64,000 nt of DNA from an uncultured Candidatus Saccharibacteria bacterium (GTDB taxonomy: Bacteria > Patescibacteriota > Saccharimonadia > Saccharimonadales > UBA4665): contig CAYZZH010000001.1 in NCBI GenBank assembly GCA_964483005.1, positions 23,370 through 87,369 on the forward strand, written 5' to 3'. The stretch's first letter is position 1; the number at the start of each line of letters is the position of its first letter. This document shows positions 2,035 to 59,792 of this stretch, piece after piece. Below the pieces are notes generated by a model. It saw only the letters and a list, made by a program, of their open reading frames with translations, searched no databases and was not told the origin of the DNA. The position numbers were made by a program, and so were the translations under genes.

Positions 2035-3438
2035 CTATGCATAAAGTCGATCCTTTATTTCGCCAATGGCGCTACGAAGCGTGGGGTTAAGGGCAATTTC
2101 TCGCTCGATTTTTTCGACCGAATGAATGGCAGTGGTGTGGTCTTTGCGGCCAAGCTCTTGGGCAATTTTTGGAAAGCTAAGGTGAAGCTCGCTGCGCAAC
2201 AGGTGCATTGCTACTTGGCGAGGCAGTACAATGTCGCGGTCGCGCTTGGGGCTAAGCAGGTCGTCGAGACCAATGTCGTAGTATTTGGCACAACGCTCAA
2301 CGATTTGCCGGGCACTCAGGTGTTTGGGCCGGCCGCGACCATTGCCAAGTAGCCCCGTTACGGTTGCCAAGTTTGGTTCGAGCCCGCGTAATTCACACAG
2401 CGCAATAACCTGGTTAAGCGCTCCTTCGAGCTCGCGAATGTTAGACGGAAACTGGTTCGAAAGAAACTCGGTGGCGTTGTGGTCAAGCACAATGCCTTTT
2501 TCCTCTGCTTTGGACTGAATAATAGCGCAGCGCGTTTCAAAGTCGGGGTTTTGCATGTCGATACTCATGCCCCACACCAAACGACTGCGCAAGCGTTCTT
2601 CGAGGGTGGGGATTTCTATGGGGGGTTTGTCGCTGCTAATAATCATTTGTTTGTTTGCCTGGTGCAGGGCGTTAAAGGTGTGAAAAAACTCTTCCTGGAT
2701 TTTTTCTTTGCCGGCAAAAAACTGTACATCGTCGACAATAAGCACGTCGGCACTACGGTAGTAGCCGGCAAAGGCGGTGTTTTTTTTGAAACGCAGCGCG
2801 TCGACAAACTCTTGTACAAACTGCTCACTCGAAATGTACACAACGCGGGCGTTTGGTGTGCGGGCAAGCACGGCGTTACCAACTGCTTGTATAAGATGAG
2901 TTTTGCCAATCCCGACGCCGCCATAGAGAAACAGCGGGTTATATTTGGTGCCGATTTCGGCCGCCACCGCCTGACAGGCAGCGTAGGCAAGCTCGTTGCC
3001 TGCGCCAACCACAAAGTTTTCAAACGTGTAGCGTTCGTTGAGCCCCTGGCGGTACTGGTGTGTGAGAGCATTTTTGCTTGAGGGAGTTTGCATGGTAGGG
3101 GCCAGGGAAGCGCCTTGGGGTGGCGACATCGACGACGAAGATGGGGCGGCTGTTTTTGTCGCTAGTTTTGCTGAAGCGCTGGGTTGGGTGTGGATTTTAA
3201 ACACAACCTCTTTGAGGGGTAGGCTGTTTGTTTTGATCATGTCGGCAATACTTGCGCTGTACTTTTTTTCGAGCTGGTTTTTGAAAAATATGTTTGGAAC
3301 GCCTATTACCAACTGCCCGTCGGCGTGTTTGACAACGTGGGTACGGGAAAACCAGGTAACAAAGTTGGCGTGCGACAAAGAAATCTCGATGTTGCCGAGT
3401 ATGGTTTGCCACAACTGATCGCCTTGCGATGTTTGCAC
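2035..3438 (-). CDS. dnaA: Chromosomal replication initiator protein DnaA
   Basis: Track frame 2035..3573. AAA+ Walker A GGVGIGKTHL and a C-terminal DnaA-box-binding domain. I place the start at GTG 3438, preceded by AAGGAGG at 3446-3452. The 45 codons upstream look like read-through. Confidence 0.93.
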   Translation of the reverse strand: MQTSQGDQLWQTILGNIEISLSHANFVTWFSRTHVVKHADGQLVIGVPNIFFKNQLEKKYSASIADMIKTNSLPLKEVVFKIHTQPSASAKLATKTAAPSSSSMSPPQGASLAPTMQTPSSKNALTHQYRQGLNERYTFENFVVGAGNELAYAACQAVAAEIGTKYNPLFLYGGVGIGKTHLIQAVGNAVLARTPNARVVYISSEQFVQEFVDALRFKKNTAFAGYYRSADVLIVDDVQFFAGKEKIQEEFFHTFNALHQANKQMIISSDKPPIEIPTLEERLRSRLVWGMSIDMQNPDFETRCAIIQSKAEEKGIVLDHNATEFLSNQFPSNIRELEGALNQVIALCELRGLEPNLATVTGLLGNGRGRPKHLSARQIVERCAKYYDIGLDDLLSPKRDRDIVLPRQVAMHLLRSELHLSFPKIAQELGRKDHTTAIHSVEKIEREIALNPTLRSAIGEIKDRLYA

Positions 3439-3563
3439 GGGAACCCCTCCTTTACGCGTGCCTGGCGCCGACCTATACGAAATAAGCAGCTGCCCACCCA
3501 GCGTCAATATAGTCCAGCGACAAACACAGCCTGTGTATAAGACTATACGAGTATTTGGGCTGC

Positions 3564-3684
3564 TTTTCCACAATATTTTCTACAACTACCGTTCGCACAC
3601 AAAACGGGCTAAAAGGGGCAAAGTTATCCACACCCTGTAAGCGCCTCTGTTAACTTGTGGAAAAGACTGGAAAAAGGTGGATAA
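3564..3684. promoter_or_regulatory. Cluster of four DnaA boxes upstream of dnaA (oriC / dnaA autoregulation)
   Basis: TTTTCCACA 3564-3572, TTATCCACA 3624-3632 (perfect consensus), TGTGGAAAA 3656-3664, GGTGGATAA 3676-3684. Confidence 0.65.
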
Positions 3685-3720
3685 CTTTGCTACAATATCT
3701 TAGAAATAGCAAGCCTGTAG

Positions 3721-3800
3721 GCCTGGCCCACATGGACCTCCCGCCAAATTGACCCAACCGAAGGTCACCGGTAAAGTGCCCCTTTTGTCAAAAAGGCACG
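3721..3800 (-). repeat. Copy C3 of a ~95-nt structured intergenic repeat family (minus-strand orientation, pointing toward dnaA)
   Basis: The reverse complement CGTGCCTTTTTGACAAAAGGGGCACTTTACCGGTGACCTTCGGTTGG matches C2 at 35 of 43 aligned positions. Shared core GGTGACCTTCGGT (plus-strand 3757-3769). Confidence 0.6.
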
Positions 3801-3836
3801 GTTGGCCAGAGCGGCGAGACGGCACCACGGGCCGCA

Positions 3837-3845
3837 TGCTATACT
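3837..3845 (+). promoter_or_regulatory. Extended -10 promoter element upstream of rpmH
   Basis: TGcTATACT, 31 nt before the rpmH ATG. AAGGAA SD follows. Confidence 0.4.
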
Positions 3846-3875
3846 AGTGACAATCTAAACGAATAAGGAACTACC

Positions 3876-4013
3876 ATGCCAAAACGAACCTACCAACCCA
3901 AAAAACGCCAACGCTCGCGCGAGCACGGCTTTATGAAACGCATGGCGACCCGAGCTGGTCGTCTTGTGCTGCAGCGTCGCCGCAACAAAGGTCGCGCGCG
4001 GCTGACACACTAG
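3876..4013 (+). CDS. rpmH: 50S ribosomal protein L34
   Basis: 45 aa, below the track cutoff. [45 protein letters not shown], stop TAG 4011-4013. Confidence 0.92.
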
Positions 4014-4026
4014 GTCTGGACGGACT

Positions 4027-4365
4027 GTGCTGGCACAAAACCATCGCTTTCGGGGGAGTCGAGACATACGACGCCTGTATAAAACGGGGCGGGGTGCCCG
4101 CACAAAATCGCTCGGCTTGCGCTACTGCGCTCAAACAGGCCAACCGTTTCGTGCAGCGGTAGTAGTCAGTCGCAAAGTACACAAATCTGCCGTGGTGCGC
4201 AACCGCATACGCCGCCGCTTGTACGAACTGCTACGCACCGAGTACGCGGCACACCTCACCGGCATATACCTACTTATTACCATCTTTGACCCTTCGCTGG
4301 CCACGAAACCAAGCTCAGACGTCCGGGCCGAATTGGCACGCTTGTTGTCAAAAGCACAGACTTAG
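4027..4365 (+). CDS. rnpA: Ribonuclease P protein component
   Basis: 112 aa, basic. ...RLRKSRDF-like start, VVVSRKVHKSAVVRNRIRRRLYELLR. Immediately after rpmH. Confidence 0.85.
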   Translation: MLAQNHRFRGSRDIRRLYKTGRGARTKSLGLRYCAQTGQPFRAAVVVSRKVHKSAVVRNRIRRRLYELLRTEYAAHLTGIYLLITIFDPSLATKPSSDVRAELARLLSKAQT

Positions 4366-4382
4366 GCAAACAACTGTGACGG

Positions 4383-4603
4383 CCTGTACTCACTTTTTGA
4401 CGAAAGAGGTGTGATGCTGAGCCACGTCCACTTTTTTCAACCGGAGGGGTTGCAAGTGAAGCAAAGGTGAAAAAGTGCTTGTGCACTTTTTCCCTTGCAA
4501 ACGCCTGGAGGGCGAAAAAAGAGGGCGTGGCTCAGGGTGTGACTACAAGCGACCTTCGGTTATGCTATGGCGCTTGCTCCCGCCTTTCTGACAAAAAAGT
4601 GAA
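4383..4603 (+). repeat. Copy C1 of the intergenic repeat family, interrupted by the 119-bp element at 4417-4535
   Basis: CCTGTACTCACTTTTTGACGAAAGAGGTGTGA ... GCGACCTTCGGTTATGCTATGGCGCTTGCTCCCGCCTTTCTGACAAAAAAGTGA aligns with C2 (38663-38761). Confidence 0.65.
4417..4535. mobile_element. MITE-like non-autonomous palindromic element, copy A
   Basis: Terminal inverted repeats CTGAGCCACGTCCACTTTTTT / AAAAAAGAGGGCGTGGCTCAG. Flanked by GGTGTGATG (4408-4416) and GGTGTGACT (4536-4544). About 85-90% identical to copy B over the shared ~65 nt. Confidence 0.65.
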
Positions 4604-4640
4604 TATGTGTGAAACAACTGCGGCGACCGAAGACAAACCA

Positions 4641-4649
4641 TGGTATAGT
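4641..4649 (+). promoter_or_regulatory. Extended -10 promoter element upstream of yidC
   Basis: TGgTATAGT. AAAGGAG SD at 4658-4664, ATG at 4670. Confidence 0.4.
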
Positions 4650-4669
4650 AAATAAGCAAAGGAGCGTGT

Positions 4670-5740
4670 ATGTTTACGGAGCTTGTGGTTCAACCTATCT
4701 TTAACCTGCTGGTGCTCATATATGCGCTAATTCCGGGGCATAATTTTGGCATAGCGATTATCATCTTTACCATCGTGATTCGACTGCTTATGTGGCCATT
4801 GGTCAAAAAACAGCTGCGCCAAACAAAAATTACCCGCAAGCTGCAGCCAGAGCTCAAACGTATCAAAAAGGAGGCTGGCGGCGACAGACAGCGTGAGGGC
4901 CAGATGATGATGGAGCTGTACAAAGAGCGCGGTGTTAACCCCTTTGGCATGCTGCCGACACTGGCGGTGCAAATGGTGGTGTTGATTGGTTTGTACATAG
5001 GGCTGGTCAAGGTTATTAAAGATCCGCGGCAGATCGTCGAGTTTGCCTATGGCCCGCTGCAAAACGTTGGCTGGCTGAAGCACCTTGCGGGCAATATTGG
5101 GGCGTTTGACAATTCGCTTTTTGGGCTGATTGACCTCTCAAGGGCGGCGCTCAGCCCCGTCGGCACCTACTGGCCAGCCTTGCTGCTGGTTTTTGCGAGC
5201 GCTGGCATACAGTTTGTAACCAGCCGGCAGCTGATGCCCTCTGACGCCGACGCCCGCAAGCTGCGACACATTTTGCGTGACGCCGGGGACGGCAAGCAGG
5301 CCGATCAGGCCGAGGTAAGCGCCGCAGTTAGCCGCAGCATGCAGTATGTTATACCGGCTATGGTACTTATTTTTACCGTCAATCTTGCGGCGGCACTTAG
5401 CCTGTATTGGTTTGTAGGGGGGCTGGTTGCGTATTTTCAACAGCGTGCTGCCCTAAAAGACGAAGGGGAAGACCTAGAACAGGTCGCAACAACCAGGGGG
5501 GCAAACGCCGTCTCGGCAAAACGGTCTCTTGGCAAACCCGCAGCAGCAACAGCAGCACGGCAGCCTAAAGCCACCATCCAAACCACCCTCGCCCAAACCA
5601 CACAGCGTGTTACCACCACAACCAAGCGGGGCAGTACTGTTTCGATTTCTACTGGTGGCACAACAAAACCGGCAGCTACCGTGACAAAACCCAAACCAAA
5701 ACCAGCCAAAAAAGCAAAAACCAGGAAAAAAAGGAGGTAA
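4670..5740 (+). CDS. yidC: Membrane protein insertase YidC/Oxa1 family with a long basic C-terminal tail
   Basis: 356 aa. ...IIIFTIVIRLLMWPLVKKQLRQTKITRKLQPELKRIKKE...MELYKERGVNPFG. Position after rnpA. Confidence 0.9.
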   Translation: MFTELVVQPIFNLLVLIYALIPGHNFGIAIIIFTIVIRLLMWPLVKKQLRQTKITRKLQPELKRIKKEAGGDRQREGQMMMELYKERGVNPFGMLPTLAVQMVVLIGLYIGLVKVIKDPRQIVEFAYGPLQNVGWLKHLAGNIGAFDNSLFGLIDLSRAALSPVGTYWPALLLVFASAGIQFVTSRQLMPSDADARKLRHILRDAGDGKQADQAEVSAAVSRSMQYVIPAMVLIFTVNLAAALSLYWFVGGLVAYFQQRAALKDEGEDLEQVATTRGANAVSAKRSLGKPAAATAARQPKATIQTTLAQTTQRVTTTTKRGSTVSISTGGTTKPAATVTKPKPKPAKKAKTRKKRR

Positions 5741-5744
5741 CACC

Positions 5745-6215
5745 ATGGACGATCAAACCGAAGCAGCAATCCAGTACGCCAAAAAATATCTCGAAGATCT
5801 CTTGTCGTTTTTTGGGCTCAACACCGACGTATACGCGACGTGTGAGGATGGGGAAGTTATTGAGCTAAGCATTCCTTCGACGCATTTGAACGGTTTTTTG
5901 ATAGGCCAACGTGGCGAAACCATGCGTTCGCTCCAATTTGTGGTGAGCAGTGCACTTAAAAACCAGCAGTATGCCCTTAGCCGAGTCAATGTCGACGTCG
6001 CCGACTACAAAAAACACCGGGCAGACCGGCTGGCCGAAGAGGCTGAGGCCTGGATCAAACAAGTCAAAGAAACCGGCGAACCATACGCGCTCAAACCTAT
6101 GAATGCCGCCGATCGCCGAACGGTGCACAAAGTAGCCGCCGAAGCGGGTCTGGCGAGCGATTCGGCCGGTGAGGGCCGCGAGCGGCATATTGTGCTCAAA
6201 CCAGCCGAAAAGTAG
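5745..6215 (+). CDS. jag: Jag/KhpB-type RNA-binding protein (KH + R3H domains)
   Basis: 156 aa. GQRGETMRSLQFV (KH-like) and ADRRTVHKVAAE...GEGRERHIVLKP (R3H). GGAGG SD. Follows yidC. Confidence 0.8.
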   Translation: MDDQTEAAIQYAKKYLEDLLSFFGLNTDVYATCEDGEVIELSIPSTHLNGFLIGQRGETMRSLQFVVSSALKNQQYALSRVNVDVADYKKHRADRLAEEAEAWIKQVKETGEPYALKPMNAADRRTVHKVAAEAGLASDSAGEGRERHIVLKPAEK

Positions 6216-14463: not shown

Positions 14464-14739
14464 ACCACCTAAGTATAGTTTGAGAATGGCGTTGACACAA
14501 TTTAAAGAGGATAAACAGACGAAAAGCCTCCACGATTTTCGGGTTAATCCTCAGGCTCGGCGTAACTGCCGCTAGTACGGGCAGGCGAGGGCTTACATTG
14601 GCGGGTTATTCTGCATGTTGTGGAATCGGTTAGACCCAAACCCGAACACTGCATCAACCATAAAATCTTTGGAGAGTCAGGTATTACGCGTTTGCCAAAT
14701 AAGCTCTCTGACCTGACCCCGATATCATACGCACTATGT

Positions 14740-14776
14740 CTACGCTCCCCCGGAGGGAACCGGAGGGGGAGCGTAG
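14740..14776. repeat. 12-bp-stem GC-rich hairpin inside the IS remnant
   Basis: CTACGCTCCCCC / GGGGGAGCGTAG. Its loop/stem carries AACCGGAGGGG (14758-14768), the same 11-mer found in both MITE-like copies. Confidence 0.7.
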
Positions 14777-14900
14777 ATCGGTTCCAGTACAATTATTAAT
14801 GTAGCCTGCTGCTGGTAGTAAGGTTGGTGCTGTCATCACTTGGTTAAGAGCAGCCCATCATCAGGCAGCAGCATGGCGTAAACAAGAAGGGGGTGCGGGT

Positions 14901-15255
14901 ATGGGCCAGCTTATTGCTACAGACAAAAAGCAGCAGGTCGTGAAAGAAATTCGTGATGATGGAAAGCGTCAATGTCTGGCAAAACAACTGGACAGCCCTG
15001 AGCCAGTACTTTGCCTTCAGCCCTGAGATACGCAAGATGATGTATACCACCAACCCAATCGAAAGCTACAATTCAGTCCTCAGAAAATACACCAAGAACA
15101 AACGCAGTTTCGTGAGTGATGACGCCCTCAGAAAAGTACTCTACCTCGCCACCCAGAAAGCCATAGAACATTGGGATAAATGCGTTCCCAACTGGCCAAC
15201 CATCCTCAACCAATTCGCTATCCACTTTGAAGGGAGGGTTACTATGACGCTGTAG
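14901..15255 (+). pseudogene. IS256-family (Mutator-type) transposase, C-terminal fragment, frameshifted and truncated
   Basis: 14953..15255 encodes ...WQNNWTALSQYFAFSPEIRKMMYTTNPIESYNSVLRKYTKNKRSFVSDDALRKVLYLA..., the conserved IS256 C-terminal block. The upstream piece (ATG 14901) is in another frame. The N-terminal ~300 aa are absent. Confidence 0.7.
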
Positions 15256-15424
15256 TAAAACCGCACCCCCTCGCCTAGGCGGGCTCGCGCCCGCCTAGGC
15301 TCCCACCCGCACACTAACAGAATGAGTTTACACAACAGTCCCGGTCAAACGCGTAATACCTGAGAGTAAAGAAGCTAATATTGCTAGACTGTAATGCGGG
15401 GGTTGGCGATAGCCTAGAAATAAG

Positions 15425-33901: not shown

Positions 33902-35740
33902 TTATTCCACCGTGACAGATTTGGCGAGGTTGCGGGGTTTGTCGACGTCGAGGCCTTTGCCGGCGGCAACGTAATAGGCAAAAAGCTGCACGACCATTGC
34001 GGTCAATATCGGGGCGGTTTGCTCCATGGTTTCGGGTATGTACACAACGTCGTCGGCGAGCTGGGCTATGTGCTGGTTGCCCTCGGTGGCTATTGCAATC
34101 ACCGGGCCTTTACGAGCGCGGATTTCCTCGATGTTACTGTACATTTTTTCGAGTAGTTGGTCGTTGGTGGCAATCACGAGGGTGGGGAAGTTTTCGTCGA
34201 TCATGGCGAGCAGGCCGTGCTTCATTTCTCCGGCCGCGCACCCCTCGGCGTGTATGTAGCTGACCTCTTTAAGCTTAAGCGCACCTTCGAGCGCGGTCGG
34301 GTACTGATAGCCGCGACCCATAAACAAAAAGTCTCGGTAGGTCGAATATTTGTTTGCCAAGTCTCGAATATGATCGGCTAGCCCAAGCACTGTCTCGGCT
34401 TTTTGCGGCAAACGGTCGATTTCCTCGAGCAGTGGGCGGTATAGCTCAGTGCGTCCTTGGCTGAGTGACAGGGCAATAGAAAGCAGCACAACATACTGTG
34501 CAATAAACGCTTTGGTGCTGGCAACCGCCTGTTCTGGTCCAGCGTGGCAGTACACGCCAGCATCAGTGGTGCGGGCAATGGTGCTGCCAATGGCGTTGAC
34601 GACCCCCAGCTTTAACACGCCGTAGTTTTGTACTTTTTGTAGTGCTGCGATGGTGTCGGCCGTTTCGCCCGACTGCGAAACAACTATTAGCGCAGTGCTC
34701 CGCGAAAACGGTTCTTTGCGATATTTAAACTCCGACCCCGCCTGCACCTCAACCGGTATACCGGCCAATTCCTCGATAGCATACTCGCCGAGCATCGACG
34801 CATAGTAAGCCGTGCCGCAGGCCACAATCACGATCCGGTCAATGTATTTTAGCTGGTCTTGCACGTCTTCGAGCCCGCCAAGCTTCACGATGCCGCTTTC
34901 TGGCCGTATTCGACCGAGTGCGGCCGAACGAATTGTTTGCGGTATTTCGTGTATTTCTTTGAGCATAAAGTGCGGGTAGTCGCCCATACTGGCCTGGTCG
35001 GCGTCGTAGTCAAGCGTTTCGGTGTCTCGCTCGACTGGTTCATCGCGGCCAAGGTCATATATGCGGTAGTCTCCGCCTCGCGTCACCACTAAGCGTTCTT
35101 TGTCGTTTAGGTACACAACCTCTTTGGTATGGGCAAGGAGCGCCGCCGGGTCAGAGGCAACAATGTACGAACCAGTCTCGGTCACACCCAGCACCAGCGG
35201 GCTACCAAGCCTCGCTGCATACAGCTTGTCTGGTTCGTGCGTGCTCATTGCCAAAAGCCCATATGCGCCTCGTAGTTGTTGCAGCGTTTGTACAAATGCT
35301 TCGGCAAAGCTGTTCCCTTGCTGGCAGTAAAAATCGAGCAAATGCGGAATAACTTCGGTGTCTGTTTCGGTCAAAAACTCGTAGCCCTTTTTCTTTAGCG
35401 TTTCTCGCAGGTCGGCGTAGTTTTCGATAATACCGTTGTGCACAACCAGTATGGAACGGTCGTGGTTAAAGTGCGGGTGAGCGTTTTGCACCGTTGGTGA
35501 ACCGTGCGTTGCCCACCGGGTATGGCCAATAGCGGTTTTGCTGCTGGGTGCAGGAGAGCCAAGTTTGTCGGCCAGTGACTGAACGCGCCCAGCCTGTTTC
35601 TCGACGACCATTTCGCCAGTTTCGCTTAAATACGCCACGCCCGCCGAGTCGTACCCGCGATATTCCAGCGCTTGCAGCCCGCTTACGACGACATCTACCG
35701 CCTTGTCTTCTGTACCAATAAACCCGACAATACCGCACAT
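33902..35740 (-). CDS. glmS: Glutamine--fructose-6-phosphate aminotransferase
   Basis: 612 aa. MCGIVGFIG... N-terminal nucleophile Cys. Two SIS domains. ends ...NLAKSVTVE. Confidence 0.96.
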   Translation of the reverse strand: MCGIVGFIGTEDKAVDVVVSGLQALEYRGYDSAGVAYLSETGEMVVEKQAGRVQSLADKLGSPAPSSKTAIGHTRWATHGSPTVQNAHPHFNHDRSILVVHNGIIENYADLRETLKKKGYEFLTETDTEVIPHLLDFYCQQGNSFAEAFVQTLQQLRGAYGLLAMSTHEPDKLYAARLGSPLVLGVTETGSYIVASDPAALLAHTKEVVYLNDKERLVVTRGGDYRIYDLGRDEPVERDTETLDYDADQASMGDYPHFMLKEIHEIPQTIRSAALGRIRPESGIVKLGGLEDVQDQLKYIDRIVIVACGTAYYASMLGEYAIEELAGIPVEVQAGSEFKYRKEPFSRSTALIVVSQSGETADTIAALQKVQNYGVLKLGVVNAIGSTIARTTDAGVYCHAGPEQAVASTKAFIAQYVVLLSIALSLSQGRTELYRPLLEEIDRLPQKAETVLGLADHIRDLANKYSTYRDFLFMGRGYQYPTALEGALKLKEVSYIHAEGCAAGEMKHGLLAMIDENFPTLVIATNDQLLEKMYSNIEEIRARKGPVIAIATEGNQHIAQLADDVVYIPETMEQTAPILTAMVVQLFAYYVAAGKGLDVDKPRNLAKSVTVE

Positions 35741-35809
35741 AGCACGCTCCTCTACTATCTTATTTTCGCTTTAGTACCTCCCCGCACCTAAACCTATGGC
35801 CAGACAACT

Positions 35810-35903
35810 GCTCAGAAATAGTGCCAGAGTGTCTGAGACAGGCCTGAAGTGTAACCGTAGTTACTCTGAAGACTGGCTGAGTACTCTGGTGCTGTTTCTG
35901 AGC
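35810..35903. repeat. 94-nt long hairpin/imperfect palindrome in the 309-nt glmS upstream region
   Basis: GCTCAGAAATAGTGCCAGAGT (35810-35830) pairs with ACTCTGGTGCTGTTTCTGAGC (35883-35903): 18 Watson-Crick pairs, plus 3 positions that are G:U only on the plus strand. Apical AGTGTAAC/GTTACTCT hairpin. Confidence 0.7.
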
Positions 35904-36049
35904 AGTTGGACCCGTAGGAGTAGGTGTGGTGAGGTACTAAGTATATTCCTCTAGTCTGCGCAACAACTCGCATTCCCACAACCACCGCTGGCATCAACTA
36001 TTTGACACCCCCTTCCCCTAGACCTACCGCAAAAAGGCTATAGCCTCTC

Positions 36050-38662: not shown

Positions 38663-38761
38663 CCCTGACTCACCTTCACTTTTTCGACGAAAGGGGCGTC
38701 TTGCAGGTGACCTTCGGTCGGCCTGTGGCGCTTGTTCGCCTCTTTCTTACAAAAAAGCGAG
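38663..38761 (+). repeat. Copy C2 (uninterrupted) of the ~95-nt structured intergenic repeat family
   Basis: CCCTGACTCACCTTCACTTTTTCGACGAAAGGGGCGTCTTGCAGGTGACCTTCGGTCGGCCTGTGGCGCTTGTTCGCCTCTTTCTTACAAAAAAGCGAG. Internal stems GAAAGGGGCG/CGCCTCTTTC and GGCG/CGCC. Confidence 0.65.
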
Positions 38762-38813
38762 TTCGGGTCAGGCTAAAAGCGACACAACAGTCAACAGCGC
38801 AGGCTCAAAGGCT

Positions 38814-42360: not shown

Positions 42361-42463
42361 AAAGACCCACAGCGTCAGCTGGCCTTGTTTGTACGATGCT
42401 TCCCACGCCTCAAGAAGCTCAGTCTCGTAGTCGGTGTTATTCGTAGGCGACTCCTATGTTAGG

Positions 42464-42498
42464 TAGTATACAGCCAGTATACTACAGCGTGTATACTA
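42464..42498. promoter_or_regulatory. Three GTATAC-centred dyad boxes in the PadR / LexA-like divergent promoter region
   Basis: TAGTATAC (42464-42471), AGTATACTA (42476-42484), GTATACTA (42491-42498). Confidence 0.45.
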
Positions 42499-42542
42499 CG
42501 TCAAGACTTTTCTTTTGGCGGGCAACAGAATATCATACAACC

Positions 42543-43061
42543 ATGAACGAAAAGCAAACACCCGCGCCGCCTCCTCCAAACTCCAAACTCCAAACTCCAA
42601 ACTCTCTTGCCGTACGGCCAACGAAAAAACAAAAAGAGCTACTCGGCTACATAGAGCAGTTTATTGCCGAGCACGGCTATAGCCCCAGCTACCGAGAGAT
42701 TATGCATGGGCTGCAATACACCTCTGTTGCTACGGTGGCTTTGCATGTCGGCAATCTTATCAAACGCGGGCACGTAATAAAGCGTGATCGTAGCGCGCGC
42801 TCGCTCGAAGTCGTCGCACCGACACTTTCCGCTCAAAAACCACTGCTGACAAACGAGGTAAAGCCTTCAGAGGAAAAATGGCTCACCGAGAAGGTCGAAA
42901 AGCTTTTTGCCGACGCCGAAGGGCAGGCCATGGCTACCGAAGCGCAACTCCAAGACCTCACCATTGTACTCGCCGCTCTGCGCGTCTTGGGCCTAGAGGC
43001 TGCCGCCCAAAGCTTTGCCGCTCGCCTCGCCACCCTCCGTACCTCCACCCCCAACCCTTAA
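42543..43061 (+). CDS. LexA-type winged-helix DNA-binding-domain protein lacking the S24 peptidase domain
   Basis: Track ORF 42456..43061. ATG 42543. KKQKELLGYIEQFIAEHGYSPSYREIMHGLQYTSVATVALHVGNLIKRGHV matches the LexA N-terminal domain. The C-terminal ~90 aa are helical, with no Ser/Lys dyad motif. Confidence 0.6.
   Translation: MNEKQTPAPPPPNSKLQTPNSLAVRPTKKQKELLGYIEQFIAEHGYSPSYREIMHGLQYTSVATVALHVGNLIKRGHVIKRDRSARSLEVVAPTLSAQKPLLTNEVKPSEEKWLTEKVEKLFADAEGQAMATEAQLQDLTIVLAALRVLGLEAAAQSFAARLATLRTSTPNP
42574..42601 (+). repeat. Tandem heptanucleotide repeat (CTCCAAA) x4 inside the 5' end of the LexA-like CDS
   Basis: Units at 42574-80, 81-87, 88-94 and 95-601, followed by a partial CTC. Confidence 0.9.
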
Positions 43062-43088: not shown

Positions 43089-43130
43089 ACATTCTCACTT
43101 TTCTAACGGCCGTTAGAAAAGTGAGAATGT
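43089..43130. repeat. 42-bp perfect palindrome, family copy 1
   Basis: ACATTCTCACTTTTCTAACGG|CCGTTAGAAAAGTGAGAATGT. 28 nt after the LexA-like stop. Confidence 0.9.
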
Positions 43131-43420: not shown

Positions 43421-45073
43421 ATGCACGAGCATGCGCCGTACGCACACGAACAGATACAGAATCTTGCACTTGCGGAGGCGCGTCTCTTAACTGAGGTCGA
43501 TACGCTCACGCGTAATCTTGACTGGCGGGGTAATGTCCCCTCGGCGGTCGAGCATGATACCAAACAAAATATGGGCACAGCTCTCGCCGAGGCCGCCATG
43601 CCGTCGGCAGTCACTACCACGTACCACCGGGTGGAGTACCATGAGGAGCAAGGTCGACGCGAACGAGTCATAAAGTGGCTTGGTAAAACAGCAATTGAGG
43701 TTGCCGAGACTGGCAAACAATTCCATTTCTCGCCGGCAGCACTTGCACGGGTGGATGTTGAGATTGCAGAGGCGATTCATGCCCAGAAATCGCTTCGGCC
43801 AGGGGTGGCACAAGTGTTTATTTCACCAAAAATGACTGCGACCGATGCACCTGCGCACATTGCGAAAGCCGAGCATTTGTACCATGACGATTCGCTCCGA
43901 GTCTCATACCCAGTCACCAATGAAAACGGGGAAGTTGTGGCGCGCAAAATGCAATCACTCTTGGTGCGAGATATTCCGCTCAGCGCATGGGTGGCGATGC
44001 TAAAAGATCCTAAGAACGTTTTTGGACGCGCATTTGAAATCGCAGATGAAGACTCTGCTCTTTCAGTCATGAAGCTTTTTTCGCAGCTTGAATTGCCAGA
44101 AGACAAACTGCCGAATGGTCCGGTTGGCCTTGTAGAAGTAGTGCTGCCGTACATAAAAGATAGAGGTACGCACCTTAGTGTGCAGCAACAACTCCTAGGC
44201 TACCGCGGCGATCAAACGCACTACGCTGAACAAGCACGCCAAAAGGCAGAGCAGTGGTTTGACTCTGACCTTGAGCTCGCCCGCAGTCTCAAGCTCGGCA
44301 AGGCCACAGACGCGGTGCGGCAGCGAATCGTTTCCGGGCAACATAGCTGGAATGCCGATGCACTAGCAGTGATTAATCGCCACCAGCTTAGCGACACAGC
44401 CTATAAGATGACCCGCGAGTTGGCCGCCGTACTTGAGCGTAGTATTCGGCTTGAACTTGAAGGGCGTATTGCCGTGAATGTCGACAACGAACGGGCGCTC
44501 AAAGCCGTTTCGCACAATGCTCGGGCGGCAATTGCTACAGGGGATGCTCAGCTAGAAGCAATGCGAGCTGCTGGCGTTAGCGCCGAAGAAATCTATCGAA
44601 CACAAGTAAGGCTTACGCGAATGGTAGCTGGCCAACCTATCCGGACTGGCGGAGGCTGCGCTGGTACTACCAAGGGCGTGTATGGCAGCGAATTAAACGA
44701 ACCAGGCTCTGAGTTTGAAAATGGTGTTGGTGAGCGAACGAGCCCGTATAACCAAGAAACTGGCGAAGATAAATCGAAGTGGAAATGGAAAAAGGGCGTC
44801 TGCCAGGTCAAGTCTTGCGCGAGTCACCCTGGTCAAACAGAAGTTGGGCCGTGCAATGTCTGTCGTCATTGCCAAGCAGAGTTCGATGCTGGTCGCGACC
44901 CCACGAAAGGGGGCTTTATAAGTTCTATAAGAGAAAAAATAACGAAAAAGAAAGAAGCAGTAACCTTTGCGGCACTGTTCCTCAGCGAAAAATCCAAACG
45001 AAAGACACAACAGATTGCCAAAGGTATTGGAAGTATTGCTCTCAAAGTGGGGAATGGAGAAAACAAGAGGTAA
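43421..45073 (+). CDS. Hypothetical protein with a C-terminal Cys-rich (zinc-ribbon-like) segment and a basic tail
   Basis: 550 aa. No domain recognised. ...KGVCQVKSCASHPGQTEVGPCNVCRHCQAEFD. Confidence 0.5.
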   Translation: MHEHAPYAHEQIQNLALAEARLLTEVDTLTRNLDWRGNVPSAVEHDTKQNMGTALAEAAMPSAVTTTYHRVEYHEEQGRRERVIKWLGKTAIEVAETGKQFHFSPAALARVDVEIAEAIHAQKSLRPGVAQVFISPKMTATDAPAHIAKAEHLYHDDSLRVSYPVTNENGEVVARKMQSLLVRDIPLSAWVAMLKDPKNVFGRAFEIADEDSALSVMKLFSQLELPEDKLPNGPVGLVEVVLPYIKDRGTHLSVQQQLLGYRGDQTHYAEQARQKAEQWFDSDLELARSLKLGKATDAVRQRIVSGQHSWNADALAVINRHQLSDTAYKMTRELAAVLERSIRLELEGRIAVNVDNERALKAVSHNARAAIATGDAQLEAMRAAGVSAEEIYRTQVRLTRMVAGQPIRTGGGCAGTTKGVYGSELNEPGSEFENGVGERTSPYNQETGEDKSKWKWKKGVCQVKSCASHPGQTEVGPCNVCRHCQAEFDAGRDPTKGGFISSIREKITKKKEAVTFAALFLSEKSKRKTQQIAKGIGSIALKVGNGENKR

Positions 45074-46942: not shown

Positions 46943-47112
46943 TATACCACTCACAAACTAAACTTCGGCTTCTCCACGTGAGCCCTCACCGGTCAAAACC
47001 AGCCAAGACCTTCGCACCATCCGCCGCCGTGGAAGACTAGTCAGTCTTGACTGGTTTTGGCTGGGCGATCATCTGCCCCCGAAAAACCGAATGTTAGTTT
47101 CTGAGTGGTATA
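46943..47112. repeat. 170-bp imperfect palindrome
   Basis: Outer arms TATACCACTCACAAACTAAACTTCGG (46943-46968) / CCGAATGTTAGTTTCTGAGTGGTATA (47087-47112). Inner arms CAAAACCAGCCAAGAC (46994-47009) / GTCTTGACTGGTTTTG (47044-47059). Confidence 0.8.
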
Positions 47113-47198
47113 GACACCGCCAGAAACTAAAATCTCGGCTTACGCGGGACAGCGGCCGCGGACAGTCTCTTTCCCACGTAAGGTATACTATATAAGAC

Positions 47199-48242
47199 AT
47201 GACATCGTTTATTCTCGGTCTAGTTTGTGCGTTTTGTGCCATTTTGTGTGCAACGCTGTACCGGACGTTTCACCGTGTGACTCCAAAAGAACTAAAACGC
47301 CGAGCGCGCAGTGGTGACGAAGTGGCGGCGCTGCTGTACCGCACCGTTTCGTATGGGCTTAGTACAAAGCTGCTGTTGGGTGGACTGACTGCCTTGTTTG
47401 CGTATGGGGCATTTGTAGGTATGGTAAAGGCGCTCGATATGTGGCTGGCGCTCCCGGTGTTAGTAGTAATTACGCTGCTTGGTACAATGCTGGTCGAAAT
47501 GAAAGGCGGAGCCAGTCGTGTTTCGCTGCGACTGGCACAGCTTGCGTCACCGGTGTTTGCCTGGTTGCTCGAGCGGCTTCACCCTGTTTTTGACCGTTTG
47601 AGTCGAGCGGCGCGTCGGCTGCGCCCGATTCATGTTCACAGTGGACTGTACGAAAAAGAAGATCTTGTCGCGCTGCTCGACGCGCAAAAAACCCAGCCCG
47701 ACAACCACATTGACCCCGGCGAGATTGACCTACTGTCGCACGCTCTGCGTTTTGGCGACAAAACCGTTGCCGACGCGCTGGTGCCAAAGCGTGTCGTAAA
47801 AAGCATAGCCGTCGACGAAGCCATTGGCCCCGTGCTAATGGCCGAGCTTCACGCCAGCGGGCACAGTCGTTTCCCGGTGTACGAACACCAAAAAGACAGC
47901 ATAGTGGGCGTGCTGTATTTGCACGACCTCATTCACACGGTTACCTCTGGCACGGTCAGGGAGGTAATGCGCCCAAAGGTAACGTATGCCCACGAGGACT
48001 TTACGCTGTACCAAACGCTGCAGGCGTTTATAAAAACCAAACAGCATCTTTTTGTGGTGGTGAATAGTTTTGAAGAATACGTCGGGATTATTACTATCGA
48101 AGACGTGCTCGAGTGGGTTATTGGCAAACTTATCGTCGACGAGTTTGACCGCTACGACGACCTCCGCGCTGTCGCTGCAGCTGCCGCCCACAAAGACCAC
48201 ACCGCCACCTTAGCCTCGCACGCCGAGCTTAAAGCCAACTAA
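47199..48242 (+). CDS. CNNM/CorC-type transporter-associated protein (DUF21-like TM region + CBS pair)
   Basis: 347 aa. 3-4 N-terminal TM. ...VADALVPKRVVKSIAVDEAIGPVLMAELHASGHSRFPVYEHQKDSIVGVLYLHDL. Confidence 0.7.
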   Translation: MTSFILGLVCAFCAILCATLYRTFHRVTPKELKRRARSGDEVAALLYRTVSYGLSTKLLLGGLTALFAYGAFVGMVKALDMWLALPVLVVITLLGTMLVEMKGGASRVSLRLAQLASPVFAWLLERLHPVFDRLSRAARRLRPIHVHSGLYEKEDLVALLDAQKTQPDNHIDPGEIDLLSHALRFGDKTVADALVPKRVVKSIAVDEAIGPVLMAELHASGHSRFPVYEHQKDSIVGVLYLHDLIHTVTSGTVREVMRPKVTYAHEDFTLYQTLQAFIKTKQHLFVVVNSFEEYVGIITIEDVLEWVIGKLIVDEFDRYDDLRAVAAAAAHKDHTATLASHAELKAN

Positions 48243-48277: not shown

Positions 48278-48315
48278 ATTCTCACTTTTCTAACGGCCGT
48301 TAGAAAAGTGAGAAT
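48278..48315. repeat. 38-bp perfect palindrome, family copy 2 (overlaps the stop codon of the 48315 gene)
   Basis: ATTCTCACTTTTCTAACGG|CCGTTAGAAAAGTGAGAAT. Confidence 0.9.
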
Positions 48316-48833: not shown

Positions 48834-48840
48834 ATTGTAT

Positions 48841-48868
48841 CACTTTTCTAACGGCCGTGAGAAAAGTG
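48841..48868. repeat. Palindrome family copy 3 (28 bp, 1 mismatch, left tip missing)
   Basis: CACTTTTCTAACGG|CCGTGAGAAAAGTG, then AGAATGTTTT as in copy 1. 8 nt upstream of the 48315-48833 gene. Confidence 0.8.
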
Positions 48869-49030
48869 AGAATGTTTTATGGGGTTTGAGGGTGAGGGTG
48901 GTAAAATGGGGGAGATGAAACAGTGGTTGCGTAGAGATATAAATCTGGGGGTCGGCAGGTAGCCCGGCTGAGGCTGCTTGTGCGAACGACCCTTTGCTAG
49001 CCACCATACTTATTTTACGAAGGAATATAC

Positions 49031-57453: not shown

Positions 57454-57477
57454 GAGTAAGAATACCCAGTGTTGTTT

Positions 57478-57552
57478 CTGACCCATGTCCTCTTTTTTCA
57501 CCTTTGCTTCACCTACCAACCCCTCCGGTTAAAAAAAGAGGACATGGGGCAG
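57478..57552. mobile_element. MITE-like non-autonomous palindromic element, copy B (75 bp)
   Basis: CTGACCCATGTCCTCTTTTTT / AAAAAAGAGGACATGGGGCAG (20 of 21 complementary). Perfect 9-bp direct repeats GTGTTGTTT at 57469-57477 and 57553-57561. Confidence 0.7.
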
Positions 57553-57578
57553 GTGTTGTTTTAATCGGTTGGTCGCTC

Positions 57579-57607: not shown

Positions 57608-59530
57608 ATGGCACGCAAGCTACCCAACACCGACCCAGAAGAAATCAAGGCCGAAAAACACGTCGCCGAAATTATGGGCGAGGCGCACGATGCTGGTGGT
57701 AGCGCGACAGAACAGCCAAGGCCAACAGATCACACCGACGACGCTGCAAGGCCAGACAGTGGTCAGCCGCCACTTGGCGACCAGGCTGCTGAGGCAGACC
57801 TTGACATGGCAAAACTGCCCGAAGATTTCAAAACCACTGCGAGTACCGCAGACGACCCCCAAACTACTGCTGCAGTCGACGATATATTGCGCCACGAGGC
57901 CGAAAACGCCCTGCCCGACGCCGAAGCCGAGGCCGACGACAGCCCGTCAGCGGCAGTTGTGATGAAACCATCGTTTTTTGAACGGGTTAAAAACGGTTTT
58001 TATCACTGGTGGACAAACCCCTGGAAGCGCTATGGGACAATCGCCGCCCTGCTACTGCTATGTGTCGTGGTTTTTGTGGTGCCCAAAACACGCGCCATGG
58101 TTTTTAACGCAATTGGTGTACGCACCAGCGTTATGGTGACGGTGTACGACGGGGCAAGCAAATTACCGCTTAAAAACGCGCAGCTGCACGTCGACGGACG
58201 TGTTGCCAAAACAGACGAAAAAGGCGAGGCAAAGGTCACGGGAGTGCGACTCGGCACTCAGCAAGTGACGGTAAGTAAACCGGCCTTTGCCAGTAGCAAA
58301 AAAACGGTGCAGCTTGGCATGCGTATTACCGACATCGGCGAAGTCACCCTTAAGCCAGTTGGCGTACAGCTAACCTACCAGCTGAGCGACTATCTTTCGG
58401 GCAAGCCACTGGTCGACGTAGAACTAAGCAGTGGTGAGGCAACGGCAAAGTCAGACAAAAAAGGCAAAGCCGTTATTACACTGGCGCCGAGTGAGGTCGG
58501 CGACACAACCATTCGTTTTGCCAAAAAAGGGTTTCGTGACGAAAAAGTCGCAGTCACTGCCCTTTCGTCGGCCACAACAGAACAAAAAATGGTTCCCCAG
58601 GCTCGGGCAATCTACATTAGCAAAGAAAGCGGCAAATACGACGTGTACAAAGTGTACATAGACGGTAAATCGCGCGAGGTTTTGTACCCAGGAACAGGGC
58701 TAGAGCTACAGACTATTACCACGCTGCCTGCGCCTAGTGGCGAACATGTGGCGGTTGCCTCGACTCGTGACGAAAAACGCAATAAAGACGGCTACCTGCT
58801 CACCGCGCTCAACGTTGTCGATGTCGAGTCTGGCAGTGCCGTTAACCTCGACTACGCCGAGCAAATTACGTTGCTTGGGTGGCGGGGAGATGTGCTACTG
58901 TACCAACAAATAGTCGCCGGAGCGAGCGCCGCCAACCCTGCTCGTCAAAAGCTGATTGCTTACGATGTCGGCGCAAACAAACGCCTGCAGCTTGCGGCGG
59001 CCAACTATTTTACAAACGTCCAGCTTATTGGCAATACCCTGTACTACGGTGTGTCGTCGACCGACCCCAACGCAAAAGACGCGTTTGCTCGCATAGACGT
59101 CGACGGTACCGCCAAAAAATCTCTGTATAGCGGTGATGTGTGGTCGGTTATGCGCACCGAGTACACAAAGCTCAAGCTGCAGACACCCGACAAATGGTAC
59201 GAATACACGCTTGGAGCAACCAGCCCAGCGGTATCTACCCCGGCTGATGAGTATCGGTTTAGGACCTATCTCGACAGCCCAGACGTAAAACAGGCTGTTT
59301 GGGTTGATGTACGCGACAGTCGCGGGGTGTTAATGCGCCACAATGTGGCAGATCATACCGAAAAAGAGCTGGTGACGCAGCGCAACATGCAGGCCCCGTT
59401 GTATTGGTTGGGCGAAAACACGGTGGTGTTTCGAGTTGCAGGGGCGAGTGAAGTGGCCGACTATGTGGTGAGTACAGACGGGGGAGCCGTTAAAAAGATT
59501 GCCGACGTGAGTCTAACTGGCATGCGTTAG
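57608..59530 (+). CDS. Membrane-anchored protein with an acidic N-terminus, Ig/PEGA-like beta domains and a beta-propeller-like C-terminal region
   Basis: 640 aa. TM IAALLLLCVVVFVV. VTVYDGASKLPLKNAQLHVDGRVAKTDEKGEAKV. No catalytic motif recognised. Confidence 0.45.
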   Translation: MARKLPNTDPEEIKAEKHVAEIMGEAHDAGGSATEQPRPTDHTDDAARPDSGQPPLGDQAAEADLDMAKLPEDFKTTASTADDPQTTAAVDDILRHEAENALPDAEAEADDSPSAAVVMKPSFFERVKNGFYHWWTNPWKRYGTIAALLLLCVVVFVVPKTRAMVFNAIGVRTSVMVTVYDGASKLPLKNAQLHVDGRVAKTDEKGEAKVTGVRLGTQQVTVSKPAFASSKKTVQLGMRITDIGEVTLKPVGVQLTYQLSDYLSGKPLVDVELSSGEATAKSDKKGKAVITLAPSEVGDTTIRFAKKGFRDEKVAVTALSSATTEQKMVPQARAIYISKESGKYDVYKVYIDGKSREVLYPGTGLELQTITTLPAPSGEHVAVASTRDEKRNKDGYLLTALNVVDVESGSAVNLDYAEQITLLGWRGDVLLYQQIVAGASAANPARQKLIAYDVGANKRLQLAAANYFTNVQLIGNTLYYGVSSTDPNAKDAFARIDVDGTAKKSLYSGDVWSVMRTEYTKLKLQTPDKWYEYTLGATSPAVSTPADEYRFRTYLDSPDVKQAVWVDVRDSRGVLMRHNVADHTEKELVTQRNMQAPLYWLGENTVVFRVAGASEVADYVVSTDGGAVKKIADVSLTGMR

Positions 59531-59533
59531 AAG

Positions 59534-59705
59534 CCATTCCAAATCTTATACCATATCCCACCCCTGTATAGCAGCACATCTCTGTCACATTTTCTTGCTT
59601 CCATTTTTGCACCGTACTTCTAGTACGGTGCAAAAGCCGGGTCAAGAAAATGTGACATTCTGTACTACTCTACAGAAGCGCTATATGGCATAAGATTTGG
59701 AATGG
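59534..59705. repeat. 172-bp imperfect palindrome immediately after the 57608 gene
   Basis: Outer arms CCATTCCAAATCTTATACCATAT / ATATGGCATAAGATTTGGAATGG (22 of 23). Inner perfect arms GTCACATTTTCTTG/CAAGAAAATGTGAC and TTTTGCACCGTACT/AGTACGGTGCAAAA. Confidence 0.85.
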
Positions 59706-59735
59706 GTTCCTAGCCCCTGCCCTTTTTACGCCCGT

Positions 59736-59792
59736 TTGACTCGGCGATCATCTACGTAGGAAAACCGAATTTTAATTTCTGAGTGGTATAGT
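59736..59792 (+). repeat. 57-bp promoter-proximal module homologous to 47047-47113
   Basis: TTGACTC..GGCGATCATCTACGTAGGAAAACCGAATTTTAATTTCTGAGTGGTATAGT, compared with TTGACTGGTTTTGGCTGGGCGATCATCTGCCCCCGAAAAACCGAATGTTAGTTTCTGAGTGGTATAGA. Ends in TGgTATAGT, 6 nt before ATG 59799. Confidence 0.75.

Follow-up and report, generated by a model that had tools for sequence, protein, structure and literature searches.

How did a 119-bp imperfect palindrome come to lie between rnpA and yidC, in the origin-proximal gene cluster of a Candidatus Saccharibacteria (TM7) chromosome, and is it a mobile element, a regulatory signal or a product of local rearrangement? The sequence in question, referred to below as E1, was found in a 64-kb stretch of DNA that was analysed over its full length (the window), and for which the best named YidC relatives belong to Saccharibacteria / Saccharimonadales. 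A first-pass annotation of the window had described E1 as a MITE-like insertion, flanked by a target duplication and located 135 nt upstream of yidC, a distance that agrees with a yidC start at 4670. The origin-proximal cluster and the promoter that follows the insertion site are as follows:

2035-3573, minus strand: dnaA
3876-4013: rpmH
4027-4365: rnpA
4641-4649, plus strand: extended -10 promoter of yidC (TGGTATAGT), kept in relatives and downstream of the C1 and E1 insertions described below
4670-5740: yidC
5745-6215: jag

The rnpA-yidC spacer measures 304 nt, and TGGTATAGT is present just upstream of yidC in all relatives examined. We would also like to point out that rnpA is a 112-aa open reading frame with a GTG start that is left uncalled in JGI annotations of the same species (loci L007 and L009); in the annotations of relatives rnpA is called, at lengths of 106-185 aa.

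Anatomy of the element

E1 starts with CTGAGCCACGTCCACTTTTTT and ends with AAAAAAGAGGGCGTGGCTCAG, and can be divided as follows:

4408-4416, unstranded: left flank, putative target-site duplication copy GGTGTGAtg (GGTGTGATG)
4417-4535, unstranded: E1, 119-bp MITE-like imperfect palindrome; similarity to a second copy, E2, ends exactly at its termini
4417-4438, plus strand: left terminal inverted repeat, CTGAGCCACGTCCACTTTTTTC, 22 nt, 91% complementary to 4514-4535
4439-4513, unstranded: core, with an inner hairpin at 4469-4492
4514-4535, plus strand: right terminal inverted repeat, GAAAAAAGAGGGCGTGGCTCAG, pairing with 4417-4438
4536-4544, unstranded: right flank, putative target-site duplication copy GGTGTGAct (GGTGTGACT)

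The earlier description of an imperfect palindrome proved accurate at each level at which it was re-measured: the outer 10 bp of the terminal arms are perfectly complementary, the inner palindrome (4469-4478 / 4483-4492) is complementary at all of its 10 nt (100%), and a recount of the flanks GGTGTGATG and GGTGTGACT again gave identity at 7/9 positions, the first seven being contiguous and the two mismatches adjoining the element [P(>=7/9) = 1.3e-3 at a fixed position]. The core additionally carries two GGAGG-containing mini-hairpins, CAACC-GGAGG-GGTTG and GCC-TGGAG-GGC. No credible gene is present in either E1 or E2, which are crossed only by spurious frames, and their concatenated six-frame peptides gave 0 matches at E <= 10 among 5.8 billion proteins. 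Assemblies of many samples (JGI, ENA and Logan) contain the identical E1 sequence and, since it is read through in contigs of other samples (L007, L009, L167, L171 and L175), E1 is not an assembly artefact.

As RNA, E1 folds into a long hairpin in both orientations, with a minimum free energy of -65 kcal/mol for the plus strand (z = -8.1; 0/200 shuffles fold as well) and of -57 kcal/mol for the minus strand (z = -7.5; 0/200 shuffles as stable). Such a very stable fold (z = -8) could denote a functional cis-acting RNA or DNA signal, such as a palindrome bound by a protein, a hairpin that stabilises the 3' end of an mRNA, or a terminator or insulator separating rnpA from yidC, whose likeness to a transposon would then be incidental; the GGAGG or CCUCC motifs in its loops, the identity of the sequence in every same-species contig that covers it and the position of both E loci after a stop codon and ahead of the promoter that follows it would all suit such a role. 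However, Rfam 15 covariance models returned nothing relevant at E <= 10 in 3500-4800, and consensus scans for terminator or promoter function at E1 gave no support. An intrinsic-terminator scan of E1 picked up only the inner 10-bp stem, and on the minus strand only, the outer stem being followed by GGGTGTGA; there is thus no U-tract after the stem, and the T-runs sit inside it. Moreover, the hairpin is missing from the orthologous spacer in 3/3 relatives, E1 and E2 are oppositely oriented relative to their flanking genes, and flanking duplications together with sharp homology boundaries are unexpected for a signal that evolved in place. We therefore regard a cis-acting signal as a very improbable explanation of E1.

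A second, shorter copy of the element

A 75-bp copy, to which the first-pass annotation had alluded, does exist. It was located by a 3-mismatch search with the left terminus of E1 (site at 57478) and lies 53 kb away from E1:

57469-57477, unstranded: left copy of the E2 target-site duplication, GTGTTGTTT, 9/9 identical to the right copy (P = 3.8e-6)
57478-57552, unstranded: E2, 75-bp member of the E family, in opposite orientation to E1, with 21-nt terminal inverted repeats that are 95% complementary
57553-57561, unstranded: right copy of the E2 target-site duplication, GTGTTGTTT, 9/9 identical to the left copy

When E2 is aligned with reverse-complemented E1, the identity starts exactly at CTG and stops exactly at CAG, and the flanks are unrelated; the ends of the E elements read CTGAGCCACG...CGTGGCTCAG. 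The difference in size corresponds to a 44-nt block (4470-4513, the right-hand core of E1, directly after one terminal repeat) that is missing from E2 and whose junctions are CTTTTT(T)C direct repeats (CTTTTTTC and CTTTTTC). As such junctions would remain after a deletion between short direct repeats, E2 may be a deletion derivative of an E1-like element that lost 44 nt between two such repeats. The arms of E1 and E2 also differ by paired substitutions at positions 5 and 9, seen in both arms, which are also expected from selection on the hairpin.

The second copy bears directly on a further explanation, according to which the extra 128 bp at the E1 site were made locally, by palindrome formation, template switching or a replication duplication, with no mobile element involved. 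That E1 is an imperfect palindrome throughout, and that its host repeat C1 (see below) is a hairpin with a similar terminus, could be read in this way. A local event, however, does not provide for a 75-bp relative with the same ends, placed 53 kb off between unrelated flanks and bearing its own perfect duplication, nor for the further copies to which breaks in the assembly graph point; in addition, E1 is not derived from the adjacent C1, the local alignment of the two being at chance level (score 9 vs 8.3 +/- 1.5). The existence of E2 already largely refutes a local origin, to which we accord hardly any probability. In contrast, the terminal inverted repeats, the sharp limits of homology, a 9-bp target-site duplication (9/9 at E2 and 7/9 at E1; n = 2 copies), the two size classes and the non-coding sequence make it likely that E1 and E2, the only copies seen directly within the window, form a genuine MITE family.

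The insertion site is itself a hairpin repeat

E1 interrupts a repeat of ~100 nt (C1) that has two paralogues in the window:

3723-3809, minus strand: C3, shorter third paralogue (CTGGCC...GGCCAG) in the dnaA-rpmH spacer, uninterrupted at the E1 point
4384-4416, plus strand: left arm of C1, the older hairpin repeat that hosts E1
4536-4605, plus strand: right part of C1, with core GACCTTCGGT and a right arm ending in AAAAAAGTGAATA
38665-38771, plus strand: C2, uninterrupted paralogue of C1 (CTGACTCACC...GGGTCAG), its left end homologous to the left end of E1

The statement that C2 runs straight through the equivalent point, and is colinear with C1 once E1 and one flank copy are removed, was borne out, and it extends to C3. 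In a MAFFT alignment of C1 with C2 and C3, both paralogues share a single 129-column gap that corresponds exactly to E1 plus one flank copy, and the edges of this gap are conserved among C1-C3 (GACGAAAGRGG on the left, GACCTTCGGT...TGGCG on the right); the comparison of C2 with C1 from which E1 and one flank copy had been removed gave E = 2.4e-9.

Beyond what had been described earlier, host repeat C turned out to be a hairpin element with the terminus of E. C1 and C2 are long hairpins themselves, and the left end of C2 (CTGACTCACCTTCACTTTTTCGACGAAAGGGG...TTGCAGGTGA) aligns from its first nucleotide with that of E1 (CTGAGCCACGTCCACTTTTTTCAACCGGAGGGG...TTGCAAGTGA), with a local score of 17 (shuffles 8.2 +/- 1.4; 0/1000 reach 17). 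Comparisons of E2 with C were not significant alone; the termini of E1, E2, C2 and C3 have CTGR..CCA....C.CTTTTT in common. Because the left ends of C2 and E1 are significantly similar, it looks as though an element has inserted into an older relative of its own kind. With its diverged copies, its lack of recognisable target duplications and its lack of assembly breaks, C would be the old and decayed branch and E the young one.

Related genomes and same-species contigs

The orthologous locus was compared in three relatives among the Saccharibacteria, with YidC identities of 71-81%. Their rnpA-yidC spacers are short, namely 1 nt in L014 (CP064992.1), 57 nt in L015 and L016, and 105 nt in L017, and neither C1 nor E1 is present in this spacer in any of them (absent in 3/3); C3 is likewise absent from the dnaA-rpmH spacer of L014, and nhmmer detected no E or C element in ~60 kb of the relatives' DNA. 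The first-pass annotation had named, as the observation that would speak against an insertion, an ancestral presence of the same sequence at this site; in these relatives the E1 sequence is not ancestral. As both are missing from the orthologous loci, C1 and E1 are lineage-specific insertions, E1 being nested in C1.

Within the species, defined here by YidC identity over 90%, the contigs of Logan, JGI and ENA samples that extend to E1 or E2 are all filled, with zero sequence difference in the covered part, and an empty allele of either site was not found among them. The empty sites seen are thus paralogous only (C2 and C3), the spacers of the relatives lacking E1 but also its host repeat C1. 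Being present in all sampled strains and missing from the three relatives and the GTDB representatives, the insertions may serve as a lineage marker.

Assembly breaks point to further copies

Logan contigs are assembled with k = 31, so that each 31-mer is unique, and contigs under 150 bp are unreported (PMC12424806). At the E1 locus, the left-hand contigs of 4 samples all end at 4443 and the right-hand contigs of 8/9 samples all begin at 4507, their far ends being scattered over various positions. With k = 31 and distinct 31-mers, a contig beside a collapsed repeat runs exactly 30 nt into it; breaks 30 nt inside therefore define a collapsed 123-bp repeat at 4414-4536, which exceeds E1 by 3 nt at its left end and by 1 nt at its right end; the 123-nt repeat unitig itself falls below the reporting size. 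Note that the graph-defined unit reaches 3 nt (ATG) past the left inverted repeat, which leaves the left boundary of E1 and the length of its duplication (7 or 9 bp) uncertain.

Other causes of the breaks were considered. A single SNP, a deletion between GGAGGG repeats and an inversion of the core each predict positions other than 4443 / 4507. Self-complementary k-mers, or k-mers shared by E1 and E2, are excluded, as a search of both strands of the window showed no second occurrence of any 20-mer from E1 or E2. Since neither the palindrome nor E2 can thus cause the breaks, further near-identical copies of E1 are implied outside the window, as judged from the behaviour of the graph rather than from a direct count. 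For the earlier question of whether copies other than E1 exist, the answer is accordingly one inside the window (E2) and, through the breaks in the de Bruijn graph, more outside it. E2 also ends Logan contigs, at 57523 and 57530, and a collapsed repeat accounts for the reproducible breaks at E1 and E2 in short-read assemblies of this organism.

A similar observation was made beyond the right end of the window. The last ~60 nt of L184/L185, ~420-475 nt past that end, belong to a 3334-nt Logan contig that ends in CTGTTAACTCACCTTACGC...TTTTCGTTGAAAGCGAGCACCGCAGCGTA; its ends are identical in at least 9 samples, and its terminus is C-like and lies just downstream of the 554-aa gene that leaves the window. 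This is probably another copy of the C family, which also breaks assemblies.

Proposed mechanism of insertion

We consider E1 most likely to be a MITE that was mobilised in trans by a DDE transposase making 9-bp staggered cuts. Such an enzyme, supplied in trans, would bind the terminal inverted repeats (CTGAGCCACG...), cut the target with a 9-bp stagger and insert the element, and repair would then duplicate 9 bp. The locus would have been built in two steps: C1, an older hairpin repeat with a related terminus, would first have entered the spacer, behind the stop codon of rnpA and ahead of the promoter of yidC, and E1 would subsequently have landed inside the decayed C1.

The hairpins could also have been moved by a single-strand (HUH/Y1) transposase, E1 and E2 then being palindromic elements of the REP/BIME type served by a RAYT, or palindromes associated with or derived from IS200/IS605, rather than DDE-type MITEs. 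E1 and E2 do form strong hairpins on both strands, their paired changes preserve stem complementarity, and several unrelated-looking families of hairpin repeats occupy intergenic regions of the window. Yet REP/BIME and IS200/IS605-type elements insert without target duplication, beside a short specific motif, whereas E2 has a perfect 9-bp duplication and E1 one of 7/9; the complementarity of the E elements extends to the very termini instead of being sub-terminal, and the window ORFs that were checked include neither a RAYT nor a TnpA gene. A single-strand mechanism thus appears quite improbable, and a DDE-type transposase remains our preferred agent.

Search for a parent transposase

An autonomous insertion sequence with matching ends was found neither in the window nor through a scan of GTDB with the E core 18-mer (CCCCTCCGGTTNAAAAAAG). 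The latter, run on one genome for each of 185,579 GTDB species (a representative set evidently without the window's own genome), gave 25 matches, all attributable to chance, with 0 in Saccharibacteria and 0 with E ends. The degenerate terminal-repeat pattern CTGNNCCAYGYCCWCTTTTTT is too permissive for metagenome contigs, where it gave at least 120 matches that were single chance matches, with no E copy among the matches listed; in viral contigs it gave 8 single chance matches, none of them paired. A blastn search with C1 plus E1 against plasmids and phages returned no match. As far as seen in GTDB representatives, viral contigs, plasmids and phages, the E family is confined to one species. E1 appears non-autonomous on account of its lack of coding capacity; a partner transposase with matching ends was not found in the window or in the GTDB scan, and may exist elsewhere in the genome.

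As had been noted before, no transposase with matching ends is present in the window. The only transposase trace in it is a dead one, namely the last ~70 residues of an IS256-family enzyme (14953-15255, plus strand; PF00872 profile positions 309-378 of 379, E = 1.4e-10). IS256-family elements generate 8-9-bp duplications, as do IS1, the IS903 group of IS5 and ISAs1. The remnant was rejected as a parent of E, its right end (...GAGTTTACACAACAGTCCCGGTC) being unlike the E terminus. Separately, the remnant region (14678-15360) carries at its two edges a perfect 18-bp inverted repeat, TCAGGTATTACGCGTTTG (14678-14695 and 15343-15360), and a hairpin within it (14742-14780) carries in its loop an 11-mer, AACCGGAGGGG, in common with E1 and E2.

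Other repeats and signals in the window

A third repeat family consists of 38-nt palindromes (ATTCTCACTTTTCTAACGG|CCGTTAGAAAAGTGAGAAT) at 43091-43128, 48278-48315 and 48840-48873, two copies being identical at 38/38 positions. On the plus strand a short T-run comes directly after each palindrome, giving it a terminator-like look, and the inner motif TCACTTTTCTAACGG resembles CCACTTTTTTCAACCGG of E1. One of them lies between a gene for a LexA-type DNA-binding domain (42456-43061) and a cobalamin riboswitch (RF00174, 43213-43349, plus strand, 34.8 bits), itself upstream of a 550-aa gene (43421-45073). This riboswitch is the only Rfam match at gathering level in the 64-kb window, and no tRNA gene was reported there.

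Several further regions have a repetitive structure. The leader of glmS (35771-35940; gene at 33902-35740, minus strand) is filled by two nested inverted repeats with 29-nt and 26-nt arms, and matches no Rfam family at gathering score, the glmS ribozyme included; a 31.3-kb Logan contig, the one behind L001, would have its end inside this structure, at ~35827. A common segment of ~58 nt, 77-94% identical and ending in an extended -10 box (TGGTATAG), is found at 47056-47113 and 59735-59791, upstream of two unrelated genes (starts at 47199 and 59799), and may represent a duplicated promoter cassette or another repeat family. Directly downstream of a 640-aa gene, positions 59530-59709 form a 180-bp double-nested palindrome (outer arms 49 nt, 80%; inner arms 36 nt, 83%). 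Finally, a 592-nt non-coding region (60617-61210) is dense in short repeats, for example GACAGGGACTTTTGCTAAAA, GACAGATCTTTTGCTAGAAAA and GGACCTTTTGCTGCCAAAAGGTCC, and contains a perfect 15-bp hairpin (60856-60888); Logan contigs from several samples start inside it, at 61140.

It is conceivable, though in our view unlikely, that E, C and perhaps the 38-nt palindromes (43091, 48278 and 48840) form one superfamily of hairpin elements (CTGR...CACTTTTT...), confined to one Saccharibacteria species and still active in an epibiont genome of ~1 Mb in which an intact cognate transposase is lacking. If so, their mobilisation would depend on an external enzyme, encoded by the host actinobacterium, by a phage or by some other member of the community, or on an unrecognised type of transposase, and some copies may now serve as terminators or insulators.

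Effect on the host and significance

Both E copies and C1 are situated between the stop codon of the upstream gene and the extended -10 promoter of the downstream gene. Since the conserved promoter of yidC lies downstream of the insertion, the effect of E1 on this gene is probably small, and the E copies and C1 probably persist because their sites are neutral. Any transcript that reads through from rpmH-rnpA would carry the -65 kcal/mol hairpin at its 3' end, and could be stabilised or blocked by it; there is no evidence for a dedicated regulatory role of E, given the lack of a U-tract after the outer stem and the opposite orientations of the two copies.

MITEs as such are well known, and the novelty lies in the fact that no description was found for Saccharibacteria: a full-text literature search returned no paper pairing Saccharibacteria with 'miniature inverted-repeat', and the results listed for Patescibacteria and 'MITEs' concerned arthropod mites. 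The E family would document recently active mobile DNA in a reduced genome of the Saccharibacteria (CPR/Patescibacteria), as well as the tolerance of insertions at the chromosomal origin cluster dnaA-rpmH-rnpA-yidC, and cataloguing where its copies have inserted could give a clue to the transposase that is, or once was, at work.

Comparison with known elements

Like the REP/BIME sequences mobilised by RAYTs, the E elements are intergenic palindromic repeats that are clustered or nested; unlike REPs, which measure 20-40 nt, carry a 5' tetranucleotide and have no duplication, they are longer and possess true terminal inverted repeats and duplications. Correia/NEMIS of Neisseria, ERIC and RUP are also intergenic repeats of ~100-150 bp with inverted-repeat ends, forming long RNA hairpins upon co-transcription and occurring in full-length and internally deleted classes. 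These duplicate a TA dinucleotide and are linked to IS630-like or unknown enzymes, whereas E has a 9-bp duplication and an unrelated sequence.

The IS4-family elements IS10 and IS50 end in CTGATGAATCC... and CTGACTCTTATAC..., respectively, and generate 9-bp duplications. The E and C termini likewise begin with 5'-CTGA (CTGAGCC in E1, CTGACCC in E2 and CTGACTC in C2), CTGC ends being seen beside CTGA, and E has a 9-bp duplication, the agreement with these ends amounting to only 4-7 bases. On the other hand, no IS4-family transposase was found in the window and duplications of 8-9 bp are not specific to IS4, so that an IS10/IS50-like origin of E is a lead only.

MITEAba12 of Acinetobacter baumannii is 113 bp long and AT-rich, with imperfect 16-bp terminal inverted repeats, 9-bp duplications and few copies per genome; its terminal repeats match those of a co-resident proposed parent, ISAba12, which identifies its mobilising enzyme, and its transposition has been observed (PMC6382973). 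E differs in being a GC-rich long hairpin with no co-resident candidate parent, in that we infer its transposition, and in having no sequence similarity to MITEAba12. What the two have in common is their very small size (119 and 75 bp vs 113 bp), the absence of coding sequence, imperfect terminal inverted repeats, a 9-bp duplication and an intergenic or gene-proximal location, and MITEAba12 is thus the closest described analogue of E in anatomy.
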